DNA from: Shigella phage vB_SdyM_006
Sequence record: MK295204
DNA: 64,000 nt
Strand: one strand, 5' to 3'
The position numbers and the translations under genes were made by a program. Shown here in pieces: positions 9,816-36,723 of this stretch (positions are counted from its first letter, which is position 1; each line of letters starts with the position of its first letter). The notes under the pieces were generated by a model. The model made no database searches. It was not told where the DNA came from and saw only the letters and a list, made by a program, of their open reading frames with translations.

Positions 9816-10820
9816 CTATTTTGTAATTAAATTGACCCAATCTTTTCGAATGAATTCTTGTATTTCTTTTTGAATAGATTTCTTGATTAATGCTGGGTCA
9901 TCGTAATCAAGAATATCATGCCCGTCTTTTAACATATCTTTTAAAACATCCTGCATCATTAGACCTTGAACTTTGCCAAAATCTTTTGAAGATATTTCGC
10001 CAACATGGCTAATCACATTAGATAAACGTTGTGCAGTGATATATGATGTAGAAAAATTAACCAGTTCTTGGTCGTCATTTGATAATTCTGGTGTAGGTCT
10101 AATTGTTTTTACTTTACCAGTTTCTTTGAACTTAGCATTTTTACATTTAAAAATTACACGGCTTTTATTATTGAACTGTGTTGGAGTAATAGGTTTAAGA
10201 ACATAACCTTCTGCAATATTTTCTGAACCTTCTTTTTGAGGACCAAATACGTGGGCATTTGCAGCCGGAATACCATGTTCTTTTACTATTGCATTAAATT
10301 CTGGGATTAAAGAATCAAATGAACGCTCTAAATTACTTAATTCATCAAAGTCACCAGTTAAAATAACAGGGCAGATTTTAAGATTTGTTTTAGAAGATAA
10401 CATTCTTAAAAATAAAGCATCTACTAAATCACCATTAATTAAAATATCAAATACCCAGAAATCTTTTTCTTCGTAATCTACTTCTCGTTGAATACCAGGG
10501 CCTGCATATTCGCCAAAGACTGTTAAAAGTTCTAAGTCAGGCATTGATTCTTTAACAGTATTAAACATGTCAAGAATGTTTTGTTTATAACGCTTTAAGA
10601 TTAATTCGTATCCAAAAAATGCTTCAGATTCACCAATAAGATTAGTTCGTTTTGCACAAACAACATCTACACCATCACAAATAAAACTAAAATTAGTCCC
10701 ATGTATTTTTTCTTGGGCAATCCAAGGAATACCTGGTGCTGTTTTTCCTTCAAAAAAGGCCTTTTCTACTAATTTAGTGTTATCAATATTTTCAATAGAA
10801 TCATATTTAATAAATTGCAT
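9816..10820 (-). CDS. rnlB: RNA ligase 2
   Basis: 334 aa; nucleotidyltransferase lysine motif KIHGTN, plus blocks GYVLKP and KCKN-KF and GKVQGLMMQDVL matching T4 Rnl2. Confidence 0.9.
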   Translation of the reverse strand: MQFIKYDSIENIDNTKLVEKAFFEGKTAPGIPWIAQEKIHGTNFSFICDGVDVVCAKRTNLIGESEAFFGYELILKRYKQNILDMFNTVKESMPDLELLTVFGEYAGPGIQREVDYEEKDFWVFDILINGDLVDALFLRMLSSKTNLKICPVILTGDFDELSNLERSFDSLIPEFNAIVKEHGIPAANAHVFGPQKEGSENIAEGYVLKPITPTQFNNKSRVIFKCKNAKFKETGKVKTIRPTPELSNDDQELVNFSTSYITAQRLSNVISHVGEISSKDFGKVQGLMMQDVLKDMLKDGHDILDYDDPALIKKSIQKEIQEFIRKDWVNLITK

Positions 10821-26419: not shown

Positions 26420-28483
26420 TTAAATAATAAATTTTTCTGGGACAAAAGTAAGATCAACAGCTGTTGATAATAATTCTAGCCCTTTTTGACTAATTTTACC
26501 AGTATTTTCTTTTAAGAATTCTTTAAACCCAATTTTTTCGATTTTTCCTTCAGATAAAAACTTATTTCCGTCAATAAGTTCGCTTTCATCTAGTAATTCT
26601 GGATCCACTACAGATGTTTCTACTAATATTGGTCTATTAAATTCTATATCACGAGCGTTTTCATAACCGTGGATAGAATGAATCTTAAGAGCTAAACCTC
26701 TAGGTAAAATCACCTCGCATTCACTAGAGTATTTTGACATATTACCAGGAATAATAACATTGACTTTATGTGCACCTTTAATAGTTATACCCATAGAAAT
26801 GTTAATATCTGTTTTCTTAGTTGCTTTCTTACCATTAACGGCTACACCAATATTTTTTGGTGTCATAACTGTTGATATAACATCATCGAATGTTTCGGAT
26901 TCAAAAGTTACTGTAGTCGCGTTAGGTTTAATATTATCAAGAACATCATTTCGTTCCCCAAAAATAATTGGAGCTAATGAAGTCGAAATATAATTAGGAA
27001 AATATAATGTTTTATTTTTAGCAGCTTTTTCTACGTCGGCATAAGGTAATTTTTGTGCTCTATATAAAATAGTTCCTTTTTCTAACTTGGTTCCTTTTTT
27101 GAAGGCCCCATCTAAGACAGGAATTTTGTTTTCATACACAGATTTTAAACTTTTATCTTTACCAAGCAAAAAGTCGTTCATTTCTTCATATCCACGTAAA
27201 GCATAATCTGTGATAACTTTTCGCTCTTCTTCTGTTAAATCCATTTCTGTTTCGGTTCTAAATAACTCTTCTAAAGGAGTATAGAAAACATTTCTGTTTA
27301 AAGCAGAGATACAGCCTCTTAAAGCTCTAGTCTTAGCCACATTATCGTCAGGTCCATATGTTTCTAAATCTTCGGCTATTTTTTTGTAAACATCCATAGC
27401 ATTATTAGAAGTTTTGAGCGCATTGTTAATTATCAATATATACGGTTTTGCTAATTTATATTTTTCTTCACTAGATAAATGATAAAAATTTTCAACACCA
27501 TACCCAGATATGCGTTCTAAAGAATCTAATAAAAATCTAGCTTCTAGATCTGATTCTTCTTCACTCACGGCCGAATTTATTTTATCTAAAAACACAGATT
27601 TAGATTCATCAATTTTATTAAGGACATTTTTATGAACTAATGCAATTTTTGTAGAATCACTTTGGACAATAGGAGGATTATCTTGTAGTTCAATATATTT
27701 TCTTCTTCCTTCTTCAGAATAATTTTCTAAGTCTTCTGGTTTAGAAACACCATACATTGCTGATAATAATTCACGTCTAGAAACTTTAGTTTTTGAAATG
27801 ACAGATCGTTCACTTCTTGTGTTTTCTTGTGCTGCAATACTTCCTGCAATGGCTTCTAATTTAGACACTTGCTTGCCAGTTTTGTCATTGATATACACAT
27901 CACCTACTTTAGAATCGACTTTAGTATATAAGTCAGAATCAATACCAGGAATCCCAGCGATGTCTTCTAAAGGTCTGTTTTTACGATATATTAAAACATA
28001 AGCATGTTTACCTGTAAATTGATACAAATCTTCTAAGACAACAAATTTACCACCAGTACGTTGCATAGCCAGACGTTTGATTATTCTTTGTAATGTCTTT
28101 TCTTGGCCTTTCATTTTTTTAGCAGGGAATCTAAATAAAACTGCGTCCATTTTAAGTTTTTTAACTTGTTCGTATACAGTGTCAAAAATAGTATTCAATG
28201 CCCCAATAGGGTCTGAGCCTAAACCATTTCTTAATTCTGCTGCATTACCATTTTTAGACAAACTCATCAAAAACACTTGAACAAATTTATCACCTTGCTT
28301 TACTGCTTTTAATGCATCGCCTTTAGATAAATAAGACACCATTCTAACTAAAAGATTGTCATTTCCAGGAACACTGACATTCCATAATTGAGGGACCTTA
28401 GCCCTTTTATTAAGATTAATAGCTTTATATTGAGCTATTTCTGAATCAAAAACCTCATTTAAATTAATTTCATTTAATTCCAT
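26420..28483 (-). CDS. alt: Alt-like ADP-ribosyltransferase (packaged, R-S-ExE class)
   Basis: 687 aa vs 682 in T4; ART triad in order: LYRAQ (Arg), ISTSL (Ser-Thr-Ser), ECEVILPRG (Glu-x-Glu); TATAAATA late promoter upstream. Confidence 0.8.
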   Translation of the reverse strand: MELNEINLNEVFDSEIAQYKAINLNKRAKVPQLWNVSVPGNDNLLVRMVSYLSKGDALKAVKQGDKFVQVFLMSLSKNGNAAELRNGLGSDPIGALNTIFDTVYEQVKKLKMDAVLFRFPAKKMKGQEKTLQRIIKRLAMQRTGGKFVVLEDLYQFTGKHAYVLIYRKNRPLEDIAGIPGIDSDLYTKVDSKVGDVYINDKTGKQVSKLEAIAGSIAAQENTRSERSVISKTKVSRRELLSAMYGVSKPEDLENYSEEGRRKYIELQDNPPIVQSDSTKIALVHKNVLNKIDESKSVFLDKINSAVSEEESDLEARFLLDSLERISGYGVENFYHLSSEEKYKLAKPYILIINNALKTSNNAMDVYKKIAEDLETYGPDDNVAKTRALRGCISALNRNVFYTPLEELFRTETEMDLTEEERKVITDYALRGYEEMNDFLLGKDKSLKSVYENKIPVLDGAFKKGTKLEKGTILYRAQKLPYADVEKAAKNKTLYFPNYISTSLAPIIFGERNDVLDNIKPNATTVTFESETFDDVISTVMTPKNIGVAVNGKKATKKTDINISMGITIKGAHKVNVIIPGNMSKYSSECEVILPRGLALKIHSIHGYENARDIEFNRPILVETSVVDPELLDESELIDGNKFLSEGKIEKIGFKEFLKENTGKISQKGLELLSTAVDLTFVPEKFII

Positions 28484-28521: not shown

Positions 28522-28527
28522 CCAAAA

Positions 28528-28550
28528 AGGAGACCGAAGTCTCCTTGTTT
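28528..28550 (-). terminator. hairpin terminator (AGGAGAC-CGAA-GTCTCCT family)
   Basis: 7-bp stem, CGAA loop, T-run on minus strand; between cassette gene and alt late promoter. Confidence 0.6.
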
Positions 28551-29164: not shown

Positions 29165-29185
29165 AAAAAAGAGCCTTTCGGCTCT
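29165..29185 (-). terminator. hairpin terminator upstream of cassette promoter
   Basis: GAGCC-TTTC-GGCTC followed on minus strand by TTTTTT then GTTTAC. Confidence 0.6.
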
Positions 29186-29387
29186 AAATAATTTTTGATA
29201 AATCATCTTGTATTGCTAAGATTTTATGAAAATCTGATTCTCTTATAGGACAAGACTTATCTAACTTAAATGATATTAAAGAATTCATAAAGATAGATTC
29301 TATTTGTTCTTCTAAATCATCTATTAAAATATTCTTCTGGTGATTGTCCAAAGATTTCATAAAAGTCATTTGCCTCTTGTTTATCAA
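29184..29387 (-). CDS. hypothetical small ORF overlapping ligase 3' end
   Basis: 67 aa ORF; overlaps the ligase gene by at least 44 nt in another frame, so doubtful. Confidence 0.2.
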   Translation of the reverse strand: MINKRQMTFMKSLDNHQKNILIDDLEEQIESIFMNSLISFKLDKSCPIRESDFHKILAIQDDLSKII

Positions 29388-30789
29388 GACGTCTCATTTT
29401 AACACGTGGTAAAAATAAACTATATGTTTCTCGTCCATCAACTTTTTGAGCTGCATTACATACACCCGAGATAATCATACCGACAAGTTTACCTTTCTTA
29501 TGAAGATCCCATAATAAACGACGGTCTAATTCATGACGTTTATCGAGTGGAATCCAGATTTTTTCTTTTGAACCTTTTACCTTTTCGTAATCTTTATCCT
29601 TAAAACCAGAACCACAGTCAACTAAAATAGTCCCATCTCTAGACCTTAAATTGACACCACCTAATTTTTCAGGGTCTTTAGAATGTGGATACGCACCAAT
29701 AATTTCTAAATCAAAATCTTTTTCTTCTTTAAATTTTACTTGGTCACAAGTACGTCCATCAGACCAAACACCAAGTTTATTTTTTAGAATAATACCTTCT
29801 AACTTCATATCAACATATTTTCTGTAAATAACTTGGGCTTCTTCTAAAGTCTTAACTTCTTCTGATGGAATTAATTCTAAACGTCCTGCTTTTTTAGTAA
29901 TTAATTCTAAATTTTTTAACCTTTCTTTGTAAGGTTTATTAATTTCTGAATTATCAGTCTGTGTACCTTGTGTAACTTCATAGTTAATTAGATCCCAGAC
30001 CTGGAATTTAACACAATCTGCTTCGGTTTTTGAAATGGTTCCTTGGATTGATTTATTTGCAATACCGTTACCTTCTTCTCTAGAAGCAACAATATTTTCT
30101 TCTTCGTCTTCATCAAAGAATAAATCTAGACCTTGTTTTGTTGATTTAGGAAAATAAACTAGTTCACCATCAAGAACAACGTTTCCTAATCCTTCAGTGA
30201 TAGATACAATTTCTTCTTTTAGCAAATCTAGACCAAGATATTCGCTACCAGAACGAGAATATAAATTAACTTCCCCGTCTACAACTTCGGCAAAACATCT
30301 AGCACCATCTGCTTTAAGCTGAGCTAATGCTGGGAATTTAATTTTAGATACATTAGCTTTACTAAAAGGCGCTGCTAAAAACTGCGGCTGCTTTGGTAAT
30401 AAATTTTCCCATACTTTGTTTGGAATACTTCTTCCTACACCACATTCCAAGTCACGTTTGACAATGCGTTTAATTAATGCTGCATCTTTAGGGCATAAAC
30501 TTTCTAATACATCTTTTAAAGCAGCAATTGCAGCATGTCCTGTTAAAACCCGTTCACCTAAAACATTTTCTAAAAAATCTAAAGCGTCACGAAGTGTTTT
30601 AGATTCGGTTTTAGGTTCATATTCTGGAATCTTTTTAATATGGAATTTGACTCTTTGAGAATATGTTAATCTAAACACATCTTTTACTAATAAATTGTTT
30701 TTATATTTTAAAAGAATATTTTCTTTTTCTTTTAATGAATCCGTAGAAGCTAGTTCTACAATAATATCGTATACCATACCTTTTTCCAT
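29317..30789 (-). CDS. 30: ATP-dependent DNA ligase
   Basis: 490 aa vs 487 in T4; adenylation motif FPALAQLKADGARCFAEV, plus RDLECG and GLEGIILKN blocks. Confidence 0.93.
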   Translation of the reverse strand: MEKGMVYDIIVELASTDSLKEKENILLKYKNNLLVKDVFRLTYSQRVKFHIKKIPEYEPKTESKTLRDALDFLENVLGERVLTGHAAIAALKDVLESLCPKDAALIKRIVKRDLECGVGRSIPNKVWENLLPKQPQFLAAPFSKANVSKIKFPALAQLKADGARCFAEVVDGEVNLYSRSGSEYLGLDLLKEEIVSITEGLGNVVLDGELVYFPKSTKQGLDLFFDEDEEENIVASREEGNGIANKSIQGTISKTEADCVKFQVWDLINYEVTQGTQTDNSEINKPYKERLKNLELITKKAGRLELIPSEEVKTLEEAQVIYRKYVDMKLEGIILKNKLGVWSDGRTCDQVKFKEEKDFDLEIIGAYPHSKDPEKLGGVNLRSRDGTILVDCGSGFKDKDYEKVKGSKEKIWIPLDKRHELDRRLLWDLHKKGKLVGMIISGVCNAAQKVDGRETYSLFLPRVKMRRLDKQEANDFYEIFGQSPEEYFNR

Positions 30790-30798
30790 TTATAGTCC

Positions 30799-31434
30799 TT
30801 ATTTTATACTATTTAATGATTCTTCTAAGTCTGGTAAAATGGATTCAAAATCATACCAGTCTTTAACATTGATAATAGGACAATCTGGCAAATCACGTTG
30901 TCCACGTGGCATATGAATCAAAGGTAGTCTCGAAATAACTTTATGACAATCTTCAAGATTATGAGCCAAATCATCAACAAAACATAAAAGATTTTTAGTG
31001 TGTTTAACTTTAACATCTAAATAATGAGGAGTTTTAGATTCACCATAATTCACAAGTAAAATATCACTAAATGCATTAGGAAATAAAGAATTCAAATTAT
31101 ATAACCGATTAAACAATGCCTGGTTAGTAGTTCCTAAAGCTGTGATAGCAACAAATTCATACTTATGTTTAAGCCTATTAATGACTTCAATGGCATCAGT
31201 ATATCCAGTTAGATACTTAATATATTTTGAGTTATTGTATTCCGTCATTAATTTTAAGCCAAGTTCTTCATTACAACGGAACATTTCGCCTGGCGACATA
31301 AAAACATTTTCTGTGATAACTCTTAAAATATTTGATGTATCAATACCATAATCTTGTGCAAAATAAGGAAGTCCAGATGCCCACTGGACTAAAATGCCAT
31401 CAACGTCAGTTAAAATAACAGGTTTTACTTGCAT
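30799..31434 (-). CDS. HAD-superfamily phosphatase, nucleotidase-like
   Basis: N-terminal HAD motif I VILTDVDGILV; 211 aa. Confidence 0.55.
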   Translation of the reverse strand: MQVKPVILTDVDGILVQWASGLPYFAQDYGIDTSNILRVITENVFMSPGEMFRCNEELGLKLMTEYNNSKYIKYLTGYTDAIEVINRLKHKYEFVAITALGTTNQALFNRLYNLNSLFPNAFSDILLVNYGESKTPHYLDVKVKHTKNLLCFVDDLAHNLEDCHKVISRLPLIHMPRGQRDLPDCPIINVKDWYDFESILPDLEESLNSIK

Positions 31435-31877
31435 TATGCATCCTCATATTTAATTGCCATAAGAGCCTTTTTAGTGAATTCGTAGATGTCAATATTTTTA
31501 ACACCTTGGCTTAAAATAGATTCCACTGTTTTATCAAGAACTGGCTTAATAAAAGGTCCTTGAAGATTCATTGTTCCAGTTCTATCTTTAAATGCGATAA
31601 CGAATTTACGATCGACCCAATTATTTTTGGGTTCAAGATTTTCTATTTTTTCAAAATAACCATGTTCATCAACGTCAATAATAAACGCTACTGTAAAATC
31701 GTCTTCGGTTAAAGTTTCGTCACCACATTTAAGTTTTTTGACATGTCCACTTTCGTCAAGTTCAATAACTTTAAATGGGCTATTTGAGATAGCATTAGCA
31801 ATACGTTCATTAGAATAATTTTCATCAACAAATCCGTCAATGTCAATTAATTTATACCAACCATTTAATTCAAACAT
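31434..31877 (-). CDS. hypothetical protein (paralogue of next gene)
   Basis: 147 aa; shares Y-x-LI, YS-x-E-I and NPFKV-x-L motifs with 31885..32337. Confidence 0.45.
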   Translation of the reverse strand: MFELNGWYKLIDIDGFVDENYSNERIANAISNSPFKVIELDESGHVKKLKCGDETLTEDDFTVAFIIDVDEHGYFEKIENLEPKNNWVDRKFVIAFKDRTGTMNLQGPFIKPVLDKTVESILSQGVKNIDIYEFTKKALMAIKYEDA

Positions 31878-31884
31878 AGTATTC

Positions 31885-32337
31885 TCACTTAAAAGTAATA
31901 GATTGGGTGATTTCAGCAGTTTTATCTAAAGTATACATTTCAACTTTACCAGTAGGATTTTTTGTTAAAAATGCTTCGATACTTTTATGTGCTGATTCTT
32001 CATCTAGAGGAACTGAAGAAGTTTCTACACCGTTTAAAATTTGGACTAAAACTACACGGGCTGACGGGACTACAACTTCATTAAAATACTCCACTTCATA
32101 TTTAGAAATCACCACTGTTAATTGAGAGTCAAAATCAGAAGGTGTGTATTCTTTTCCGTTAATTGAAATTAAAACAACATCACGATTGCCAGGCCCAAGA
32201 GCTAAAACTTTAAAAGGATTTTTCCCAATAAGGTTATAAATTTTTTCATTATATGCCGAGTACTCTTTAAACTCGTGTTCATTGATAAGTTGATAAGATT
32301 TACCGATTTCAAATTCAAAAGCTGTTTTAGTTTTCAT
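31885..32337 (-). CDS. hypothetical protein (paralogue of previous gene)
   Basis: 150 aa; paralogue of 31434..31877. Confidence 0.45.
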   Translation of the reverse strand: MKTKTAFEFEIGKSYQLINEHEFKEYSAYNEKIYNLIGKNPFKVLALGPGNRDVVLISINGKEYTPSDFDSQLTVVISKYEVEYFNEVVVPSARVVLVQILNGVETSSVPLDEESAHKSIEAFLTKNPTGKVEMYTLDKTAEITQSITFK

Positions 32338-32338
32338 A

Positions 32339-32659
32339 TTAGGACCTTATTTTTAAGATTGTTTTCATTGCAGCAACTAATGGTTTTTTATCCTCAACCC
32401 AGTCATCACAACATAAATTTTCATTATCGAAATTATTGTATCTAGAACCTAGACAATGTAAACCGATAAATGTATCATTTGATGTTTTTGTTACACTGAT
32501 ATCATGGTCTAACATTAAGACCCAAGCTTGATTAATATTATTACATGGATCAAATTTTAAGCCATTAATATAAACAAATAACTTAAACCCTTGGTTTTCT
32601 ACTGTGTATTCATACCCAAGACTTTTAGCTAGTTCAATATTAATATCAAGTTCAGTCAT
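32339..32659 (-). CDS. hypothetical protein
   Basis: 106 aa ORF with FDPCNN motif; 4-nt overlap with upstream NADAR-like gene. Confidence 0.45.
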   Translation of the reverse strand: MTELDINIELAKSLGYEYTVENQGFKLFVYINGLKFDPCNNINQAWVLMLDHDISVTKTSNDTFIGLHCLGSRYNNFDNENLCCDDWVEDKKPLVAAMKTILKIRS

Positions 32660-33093
32660 AACCGTCTCCTTAAAGATGTCAATATACCACAGAATTCTTG
32701 GTTTGTTAATATAGTTTCGAACTTATTTTCGCATCCTATAGTATGAACTAATGTTTTATCGCCTGTTGCTCTCAGAGCATCTCTGAATGATTTATTCTGA
32801 TTAAACATATGAATATATGCTCTGACTAGTAAACGTTTGTAGGCTTCACTGTGACGATTAATAGGGCATCCATTATACCACATAGTGTCATTTTTCATTT
32901 TAGGACCAGCTAATTTGGCCTTTAATCCATGCAGTTTAAACACTTCAGATTGTTCTTTAGGGTCTTTAATTTTTAATCCTTGTAAAAATCCTTCTATACT
33001 GCCAAAGAGCTGATTGTCCATTTTAAAAGGATGCTCAGCAAAATTACTTAAAGCACATGAAGGCCAAGGGCCTCTAGAATGAATATCAATCAT
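32656..33093 (-). CDS. NADAR-like (YbiA-type) putative ADP-ribose glycohydrolase
   Basis: 145 aa; LSNFAEHPFKMDNQLFGSIEGFLQGLKI aligns with the YbiA core FSNFA-x-PI-x-DG-x3-TSEHYFQAQKF. Confidence 0.55.
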   Translation of the reverse strand: MIDIHSRGPWPSCALSNFAEHPFKMDNQLFGSIEGFLQGLKIKDPKEQSEVFKLHGLKAKLAGPKMKNDTMWYNGCPINRHSEAYKRLLVRAYIHMFNQNKSFRDALRATGDKTLVHTIGCENKFETILTNQEFCGILTSLRRRL

Positions 33094-33107: not shown

Positions 33108-33130
33108 AAAAAAGGAGACCGGAGTCTCCT
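33108..33130 (-). terminator. hairpin terminator 20 nt upstream of NADAR-like gene start
   Basis: AGGAGAC-CGGA-GTCTCCT with T-run on minus strand. Confidence 0.55.
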
Positions 33131-33137
33131 TAATCAT

Positions 33138-33450: not shown

Positions 33451-33474
33451 CAAAAAAGGAGACCGAAGTCTCCT
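33451..33474 (-). terminator. hairpin terminator (AGGAGAC-CGAA-GTCTCCT family)
   Basis: Same stem as 28528 copy; T-run on minus strand. Confidence 0.6.
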
Positions 33475-33479
33475 TAAAT

Positions 33480-35413: not shown

Positions 35414-35752
35414 TTATTCCTTAAGCATATACATATAAACTAAATAGGTTGTGTTTCTAGTTTTTACAATAGCTACTCTATCATCTAACATTTTAAAGCT
35501 CTTTACAGTAGATGTACTAACATAAGTTTCATCTTTAAATCGATTAGAAATATCACTGTAAATAAGTCCAGAAATACCAAATCTGGCTTCTAAATTAACT
35601 TCAAGAATATGCTCTAATTTATCAGACATTCGATGTCCGATAACAGCTAGAATAGCATCGCATGCACAAGCATTTCGAATAGAAGATAATTCAGATTCTT
35701 GGTTTTGCCCTATTTTATCTTCAATTGCGTTAATCAATTTTTCTGTTTTCAT
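35414..35752 (-). CDS. hypothetical protein
   Basis: 112 aa ORF immediately downstream of the DAHP synthase gene. Confidence 0.45.
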   Translation of the reverse strand: MKTEKLINAIEDKIGQNQESELSSIRNACACDAILAVIGHRMSDKLEHILEVNLEARFGISGLIYSDISNRFKDETYVSTSTVKSFKMLDDRVAIVKTRNTTYLVYMYMLKE

Positions 35753-36723
35753 TATAAGTCCACAATTAATTGTGCAGTGTCAAAGATATCAATACAAGGA
35801 TCTGTAATTGATACACCCCATAAAAGATTATCGGAAATCTTTTGATTACCTTCTATTAAATTACTTTCAATCATAAGCCCAAAAGTATTTTTAGCTTTAA
35901 TTGCTTCTTTAGCTACATTAATTTGGTTTTTAAAATTACCTTCACAATTAGCGTGTGAGCAGTCAACCATAACTGGAATCTCTAAAGACTCAATATATTC
36001 TTTAGAATAATTAGTTTTATATTCTTTACCGATTTTACCACCACGTAAAATAATATGCGTATTTAGATTTCCACTTGCATAGATTTTACTAATCACGCCA
36101 TCCATATTAATACCTAAATACGAATGTGGAAAAGCTGAACTCTTCATAGCATCTAATGCTACTTGAATATCACCTGATGTTGAATTTTTAAATCCAACGG
36201 CCATAGGCAGCCCAGAAGCTATTTCACGATGAGTCTGTGATTCTGTTGTTCTAGCGCCGATAGCAGTCCAACTAAAAATACCAGATAGATACTTAATAGT
36301 AAATGGGTCTAAGACCTCTGTCGCCAAAGGAAGCCCAAGATTCAATAGTTCTATGCATAAGTGACGAGCAATTCTTAACCCTTCATCCATGTTAAACGAA
36401 CCATTTAATTCAGGGTCATTAACAAGTCCTTTCCAACCTACGGTTGTACGTGGCTTTTCAAAATAGACCCGCATTACTAAAAGACATTTATCACCAATAT
36501 GGTTTTGTAATCTTTTTAAATACTGCCCGTAAATGACCGCTTGTGCTGGGTCATGAATAGAACAAGGCCCAACAACGATCAGTTTTTTAGAACTCACGCC
36601 AGAAATAATATCTTTAACTTCTTGGCGATGATTTTCCACTTGTTGCTTTAATTCATCAGAAATTGGCAACTCATCATGTAGCTCTTGTGGTGTGCTAATA
36701 GTTTTAACGTGCATGGATATCAT
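35752..36723 (-). CDS. 3-deoxy-D-arabino-heptulosonate 7-phosphate (DAHP) synthase, class I (AroG-like)
   Basis: 323 aa; collinear with E. coli AroG: VVGPCSIHD, MRVYFEKPRTTVGWKGL, GARTTESQTHRE-ASGL, HIILRGG, DCSHAN, ESNLIEGNQ, SITDPCI; all four AroG metal ligands (Cys, His, Glu, Asp) conserved. Confidence 0.88.
   Translation of the reverse strand: MISMHVKTISTPQELHDELPISDELKQQVENHRQEVKDIISGVSSKKLIVVGPCSIHDPAQAVIYGQYLKRLQNHIGDKCLLVMRVYFEKPRTTVGWKGLVNDPELNGSFNMDEGLRIARHLCIELLNLGLPLATEVLDPFTIKYLSGIFSWTAIGARTTESQTHREIASGLPMAVGFKNSTSGDIQVALDAMKSSAFPHSYLGINMDGVISKIYASGNLNTHIILRGGKIGKEYKTNYSKEYIESLEIPVMVDCSHANCEGNFKNQINVAKEAIKAKNTFGLMIESNLIEGNQKISDNLLWGVSITDPCIDIFDTAQLIVDL

Follow-up and report, generated by a model that had tools for sequence, protein, structure and literature searches.

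We report that a gene of 211 amino acids in Shigella phage vB_SdyM_006 (sequence record MK295204; the 64,000-nucleotide stretch that we analyzed is hereafter called the window) encodes what is, with very high confidence, a phosphatase of the haloacid dehalogenase (HAD) superfamily with intact catalytic residues. Judged from sequence and gene order, this protein is the ortholog of T4 gp30.2. Its nearest named relative is the NT5C family of 5'(3')-deoxyribonucleotidases, a link that is remote but reproducible, and we put the probability that its substrate would be a nucleotide at roughly 0.6. The phosphatase activity and the biological role that we propose are read from sequence, motifs and fold.

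The first-pass annotation of this DNA had drawn attention to a reading frame with an N-terminal LTDVDGIL motif, which it took as the mark of a HAD phosphatase. That reading frame is real. Its start codon shares bases with the upstream stop codon (TAATG) and is preceded by the Shine-Dalgarno sequence GAGGA, and its GC content is 30.3% compared with 31.7% for the window, with similar values in neighboring genes. Because a tblastn search placed the gene in 1,447 phage records (in 1,437 of them with at least 80% of its length covered) and an exhaustive profile search retrieved 1,008 cluster representatives at E ≤ 1e-3, the frame goes far beyond what chance would produce. The gene and the features of its product are listed below, with conservation counted over an alignment (A2) of 71 homologs down to ~20% identity that was drawn from the profile search.

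30799..31434, minus strand: HAD gene (gp30.2 ortholog), a coding sequence of 211 amino acids with an ATG start and the N-terminus MQVKPVILTDVDGILVQW, based on the open reading frame list, phrog_420 and an AlphaFold2 model.
31390..31413, minus strand: motif I, LTDVDGIL (residues 8-15), with predicted nucleophile D10 and predicted general acid/base D12, both found in 71/71.
31210..31386, minus strand: helical insert between motifs I and II (residues ~17-75), read from the AlphaFold2 model as a C1-type cap; W18 lies at 31381-31383.
31138..31158, minus strand: motif II strand EFVAITA (model strand 93-99), with T98 at 31141-31143; Thr in 63 and Ser in 8 of 71.
31096..31107, minus strand: family-specific R110 and N113 (RLYN) in the helix after motif II; R110 in 71/71 and N113 in 67/71.
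31033..31044, minus strand: motif III, GESK, with K134; Lys in 70/71.
30967..30984, minus strand: motif IV, CFVDDL, with D154 and D155 as predicted Mg2+ ligands; position 154 is Asp in 48 and Glu in 23, and D155 is found in 71/71.

Standard scans miss gp30.2 as a HAD phosphatase: for the window protein, Pfam gave no match at E ≤ 1 and NCBIfam nothing meaningful, and single-sequence searches of the PDB with this protein or with a bridging relative (P0145) returned nothing useful. The evidence comes instead from alignment and structure prediction. In a second alignment (A1) of 24 close homologs, all from the T4-like clade, D10, D12, T98, K134, D154 and D155 are invariant. Structure comparison identifies the core of the AlphaFold2 model (pLDDT 94.7) as a Rossmannoid HAD fold, in which D10 lies at the end of strand 6-10, motif IV at the end of strand 149-154, and the cap helices (residues 22-28, 34-42, 48-51, 56-67 and 70-74) between strands 6-10 and 93-99. 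Motif I aligns with VNMDGVL of the cdN mutant 2jao, and motif IV with motif IV of 3bwv, SSM1/SDT1 and MDP-1. With D10 and D12 invariant across A2 and a HAD fold in the model, the assignment of the DxDG motif to a HAD phosphatase is upheld, and motifs II to IV are present as well, T98, K134 and D154/D155 being conserved across the 71 homologs. Asp12 at position +2, which with the nucleophile makes up the phosphatase/mutase signature, and the acidic motif IV led us to reject a non-phosphatase HAD such as a dehalogenase, and the conservation of all catalytic residues down to ~20% identity led us to reject an inactive or structural protein.

To place this protein among named families, we compared alignment-derived profiles with solved structures. 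The best match of the A2 profile in the PDB was 3bwv, a "putative 5'(3')-deoxyribonucleotidase" (E 5.7e-6). Next in rank came the pyrimidine nucleotidase SSM1/SDT1, MDP-1 and an XMP phosphatase, and cdN and mdN scored E 0.1-0.5. The A1 profile had reached only cdN 2jao at E ~0.3, which made the wider A2 profile necessary. Pfam models matched by the 71 relatives were NT5C in 25 (best E 4e-10), the generic Hydrolase in 15 and HAD_2 in 13. Four of ten relatives checked singly scored above the gathering cut-off of NT5C (PF06941; 24.8 bits) over the full profile length (P0145, 36.8 bits; P0167, 35.6; P0163, 26.6; P0119, 26.2), and these NT5C-positive proteins had come up with the A1 profile as well (E 1.5e-19 to 8e-16). 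Superposition on the AlphaFold2 model covered 164 of the 168 residues of 3bwv and 177 of the 190 residues of cdN 6g2n, cap included. The extended motif I consensus DVDGVLLxW aligns with NMDGVLADF of cdN, which sets W18 (eight residues after the nucleophile; Trp in 68 of the 71 homologs, Phe or Tyr in the rest) on the Phe at nucleophile+8 in 2jao. In cdN and mdN, this Phe stacks on the base. Further along, the Lys of "DKYEW" in 3bwv is the counterpart of R110. Given the match between the A2 profile and 3bwv, the NT5C matches of the relatives, the near-full superposition and the alignments of the extended motif I and R110, we conclude that NT5C is the nearest named family.

The window protein itself speaks against a simple assignment to this family, as it gives no match to PF06941 at E ≤ 1 and stays below the cut-off; NT5C matches in its close homologs are weak and occur in 2 of 24 (best E 0.018). 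We have therefore filed it as a divergent relative of NT5C and not as a demonstrated member. The earlier proposal of a possible 5'(3')-deoxyribonucleotidase is essentially upheld, in the form of a remote profile and structure link. The profile comparison with NT5C and HAD_2 that had been suggested as a check divided in the same manner, with no match for the window protein and the hits given above for its relatives.

DNA identity between the window and Proteus phage SJ_PmiM (Straboviridae, Bragavirus) is 95-99% where the two align, and the window thus belongs to a T4-like phage. SJ_PmiM encodes a 100% identical copy of the HAD protein, annotated as "hypothetical protein". The HAD protein matches PHROG 420 (phrog_420, "unknown function") over residues 1-208 at E 2.2e-63, and is 45% identical by BLASTP to T4 gp30.2 over 208 residues (E 1e-64). 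From the profile match, the reciprocal similarity and the conserved position upstream of ligase, we assign the gene as the ortholog of T4 gene 30.2; a few records already label gp30.2 orthologs 5'-nucleotidase. As a reference for its spread we used gp59, a hallmark of T4-like phages encoded in the same region, which is present in 1,881 records, ~360 or more of them cyanophages. Since the record counts for the HAD gene and gp59 nearly coincide by genus (Klebsiella 279/281, Aeromonas 77/77, Acinetobacter 69/69, Enterobacter 56/56, Escherichia 553/605), the HAD gene is near-universal in non-cyanophage T4-like phages. One homolog, P0002 (83% identical), is labelled "Vibrio cholerae" in a TPA record at NCBI; its 40.7-kb contig probably stems from a T4-like phage and ended up in the bin of a bacterial assembly. 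The C-termini of homologs vary in length, T4 gp30.2 (L001, 4007-4843) having ~65 extra amino acids and others totalling 347-430 amino acids. In two proteins of 591 and 660 amino acids the HAD domain is C-terminal and the rest is without a Pfam match, and no Pfam domains were found in the fusion partners of the multi-domain relatives P0094, P0134, P0041, P0090 and P0015.

We sampled gene contexts in other lineages from contigs encoding homologs and from annotated phage records. Adjacency to ligase is also seen in T4 and in KVP40-like phages, and a divergent T4-like metagenomic contig (L011, 5390-7585) has the order swapped to ligase, an 88-amino-acid open reading frame and the HAD gene; a Tad2-like gene lies near this homolog, at 10477-10746. 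Ligase adjacency was absent in the sampled non-T4-like lineages. There, the HAD homolog is found directly after or near ribonucleotide reductase (L007, L013), near ThyA and DHFR (L007), or near PolIII-alpha, clamp-loader and PhoH genes (L004, L012 and PA5oct). As weak evidence, these neighborhoods fit a role in nucleotide or DNA metabolism.

We propose that the window protein is a Mg2+-dependent phosphomonoesterase of the HAD superfamily. By the established HAD mechanism, nucleophilic attack by Asp10 on the phosphate of the substrate would give an aspartyl-phosphate intermediate, and Asp12 would protonate the leaving group and then activate water. Asp154 and Asp155 are predicted to hold Mg2+, with Thr98 and Lys134, and probably also the family-invariant Arg110, binding the phosphoryl group while the helical cap closes over a small-molecule substrate. 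The likeliest substrate class would be (deoxy)nucleoside monophosphates, as in NT5C, with Trp18 placed where the NT5C Phe sits. During early infection, the enzyme may convert these monophosphates to nucleoside and phosphate and thereby adjust the nucleotide pool of a phage that breaks down host DNA and makes deoxynucleoside triphosphates (dNTPs) of its own. A full dNTP-synthesis set had been noted for this genome beforehand, and it is borne out by the near-identical SJ_PmiM genome, in which frd, td, nrdA, nrdB, denA, cd and pseT are annotated; the regions of the window that carry these genes align to SJ_PmiM within the identity range given above.

The alternative that fares best is that this HAD phosphatase acts on a non-nucleotide small metabolite, such as a sugar phosphate or phosphoglycolate, or is a phosphomutase, and we regard this as unlikely. 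Fold ranking is indecisive on this point, as generic C1-capped HADs score as high as NT5C-type structures: the top structural matches are of this generic kind, with varied or unknown substrates (2hoq, 3qnm and YfnB 3i76), and include the phosphoglycolate-phosphatase-like 2yy6 and 2hsz. The Hydrolase and HAD_2 models found among the 71 relatives are likewise generic, and a fold search of BFVD, whose hits were for the most part unnamed phage proteins, with some annotated as 5' nucleotidase, contained one relative labelled phosphoglycolate phosphatase. Against this, NT5C is the commonest Pfam match among the relatives and the sole specific one, it spans both cap and core, the best PDB sequence match is NT5C-like with nucleotidases next, and an aromatic residue is conserved at the position aligned with the NT5C Phe. 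These observations favor a nucleotide substrate.

A second alternative concerns the purpose of the enzyme: as a counter-defence protein, gp30.2 would dephosphorylate the deoxynucleoside monophosphates (dNMPs) that are set free as host DNA is degraded, or else an immune signal derived from nucleotides or the precursor of such a signal, and would so blunt nucleotide-sensing defences. We consider this doubtful, slightly more so than a metabolite substrate. There is precedent in phage T5, whose Dmp is a dNMP phosphatase that was shown to act against the Kongming defence through removal of dAMP (bioRxiv 10.1101/2024.12.20.629578). Products of phage-induced degradation of host DNA can also trigger immunity, as m6-dAMP from T-even breakdown of host DNA does for the PUA-Cal-HAD defence (bioRxiv 10.64898/2026.01.15.699771). 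In T4, 30.2 adjoins 30.3, which encodes AdfN, an ADP-ribosylglycohydrolase proven to counter DarTG1 (PMC11257639). In addition, T4 30.2 was scored as non-essential on E. coli K-12 by transposon insertion, with 72/72 TA sites hit (bioRxiv 10.1101/2025.11.20.689424). Near-universal presence in non-cyanophage T4-like phages, combined with dispensability in the laboratory, is a pattern typical of accessory or anti-defence genes.

Several results stand against a counter-defence role. T2 carries a gp30.2 ortholog by tblastn and is nevertheless restricted by PUA-Cal-HAD, with escape only via denA mutations (bioRxiv 10.64898/2026.01.15.699771), so gp30.2 does not neutralise the PUA-Cal-HAD trigger. 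Among the conditional hits named in the main text of the HIDEN-SEQ study, 30.2 has 0 occurrences, and in the one conditional table inspected, which compares REF with delta-rnlA, it has a log2FC of 0.34 and an adjusted p of 1 (bioRxiv 10.1101/2025.11.20.689424). The PADLOC defence-protein library gave no match for the window protein, T4 gp30.2 or two distant relatives. We also rejected homology to T5 Dmp beyond the superfamily, as hhalign gave a probability of 3% (E 0.015) over 57 columns around motifs III-IV only; Pfam matches neither T5 Dmp nor the window protein. It is a correspondingly speculative proposal that gp30.2 is the independently evolved counterpart of T5 Dmp in T4-like phages, a near-universal, lab-dispensable dNMP phosphatase. 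If it were true, gp30.2 would clear away nucleotides that arise from phage-driven host-DNA breakdown, whether dNMPs or modified or non-canonical ones, and that serve as defence triggers or signal precursors.

Capped C1 HADs typically take small substrates and cap-less ones macromolecules. The earlier idea that the protein processes DNA ends, which we considered in the form of a 3'-phosphatase that would heal nucleic-acid ends together with the adjacent ligase in the manner of the Pnkp phosphatase domain, is very improbable, because the cap favors a small substrate and the phage already encodes a separate Pnkp (SJ_89 in SJ_PmiM); moreover, the T4 Pnkp phosphatase superposes over the core only (127-130 residues) and NT5C structures almost wholly, HAD_PNKP is touched by 1 of the 71 relatives (E 0.003), and ligase adjacency is absent in the sampled non-T4-like lineages.

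The position beside DNA ligase noted at the outset is confirmed: an ATP-dependent ligase gene lies directly downstream on the same strand, with 9 nucleotides between the stop of the HAD gene and the ligase ATG. The ligase, the upstream gp30.3-type gene and the likely boundaries of the gene string are as follows.

29317..30789, minus strand: ATP-dependent DNA ligase (gp30), next downstream of the HAD gene (Pfam DNA_ligase_A_M, PF01068, E 1.4e-25; phrog_114, E 1.8e-130).
32656..33093, minus strand: gp30.3/AdfN-type NADAR protein, upstream, 145 amino acids and apparently full length (Pfam Phage_30_3, E 1.2e-42; NADAR, E 9.6e-6).
33112..33131, minus strand: terminator-like C(UYCG)G hairpin upstream of gp30.3 from a hairpin scan, likely the 5' boundary of the gene string.
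29170..29185, minus strand: terminator-like hairpin downstream of ligase from the same scan, likely the 3' boundary.

These hairpins bracket a same-strand string of gp30.3, orf106, two goF-like paralogs, gp30.2 and ligase. Between 28400 and 35200, 14 terminator-like sites were observed compared with 2.0 ± 1.5 in shuffled sequence. Matches to sigma-70-like promoters in the same scan were at chance level (38 compared with 36.8 ± 6.9), and expression timing is therefore not inferred. A near-identical intergenic hairpin occurs three times (28527-28546, 33112-33131 and 33456-33475), with a T-run after every copy on the minus strand; it has the form AAGGAGAC-U(U/C)CG-GUCUCCUU, a C(UUCG)G-type tetraloop stem, and contains the Shine-Dalgarno-like AAGGAG. 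The goF-like paralogs (31434-32337, minus strand; 147 and 150 amino acids) are adjacent, belong to phrog_3710 and are weakly similar to goF modulators of mRNA metabolism. In comparison to SJ_PmiM, ~600 bp carrying genes for 157 and 53 amino acids are missing between them, and since two megablast blocks overlap at 31847-31884 in this region, the difference suggests that repeated sequences recombined or that a deletion occurred between them. Elsewhere in the window, a 323-amino-acid DAHP synthase (35752-36723, minus strand; phospho-2-dehydro-3-deoxyheptonate aldolase in the SJ_PmiM annotation) lies among early genes and, as an auxiliary metabolic gene, is unusual in a T4-like phage, and an Alt-like RNA polymerase ADP-ribosyltransferase of 687 amino acids (26420-28483, minus strand; phrog_802, E 1.2e-217) is one that T4 has as well.

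This copy of the gene adds little when taken alone, as the identical protein is already deposited as "hypothetical" and the T4 ortholog is known. The gain is a firmer annotation, by which a widespread T4-like protein of unknown function becomes a capped, catalytically intact HAD phosphatase linked to NT5C. Our literature search found neither the term "gp30.2" nor a characterisation of T4 30.2, nor phage T4, 30.2 and haloacid dehalogenase mentioned together, and a review of T4-related genomes does not mention 30.2.

In comparison to T4 itself, the window has the same gene string (cd ... 30.3 - 30.2 - 30 (ligase) - alt), and the two gp30.2 proteins have all catalytic residues in common. The T4 protein has 278 amino acids, including its C-terminal extension, which the window protein lacks. 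Gene 30.1 separates 30.2 from ligase in T4, whereas the two genes are directly adjacent in the window; conversely, 30.2 and 30.3 overlap in T4 and are separated by three small genes in the window. With the NT5C enzymes (cytosolic cdN, mitochondrial mdN and the bacterial, NT5C-like 3bwv), the window protein shares the HAD core and helical cap, the extended motif I (DxDGVLxxW/F), motifs II-IV and a basic residue after motif II, but it is only 12-17% identical to the solved structures, and relative to 3bwv it has Arg for Lys at position 110 and Asn113 in place of Trp. The phosphatase domain of T4 Pnkp (PseT) is likewise phage-encoded and has a HAD core, a DxDG motif I and a functional tie to ligases; unlike the activity that we propose for gp30.2, it acts on nucleic-acid ends, and it is fused to a kinase. 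T5 Dmp, which dephosphorylates dNMPs and loses activity upon the D22A substitution of a conserved Mg2+-coordinating Asp (bioRxiv 10.1101/2024.12.20.629578), belongs to a different family and is encoded by a pre-early gene in the first-step-transfer DNA. It is nonetheless phage-encoded and may be functionally analogous in a host-DNA-degrading phage, and as phage dNMP phosphatases such as Dmp and dNMP-derived signals are now known to matter in phage-host conflict, this comparison strengthens the interest in gp30.2.
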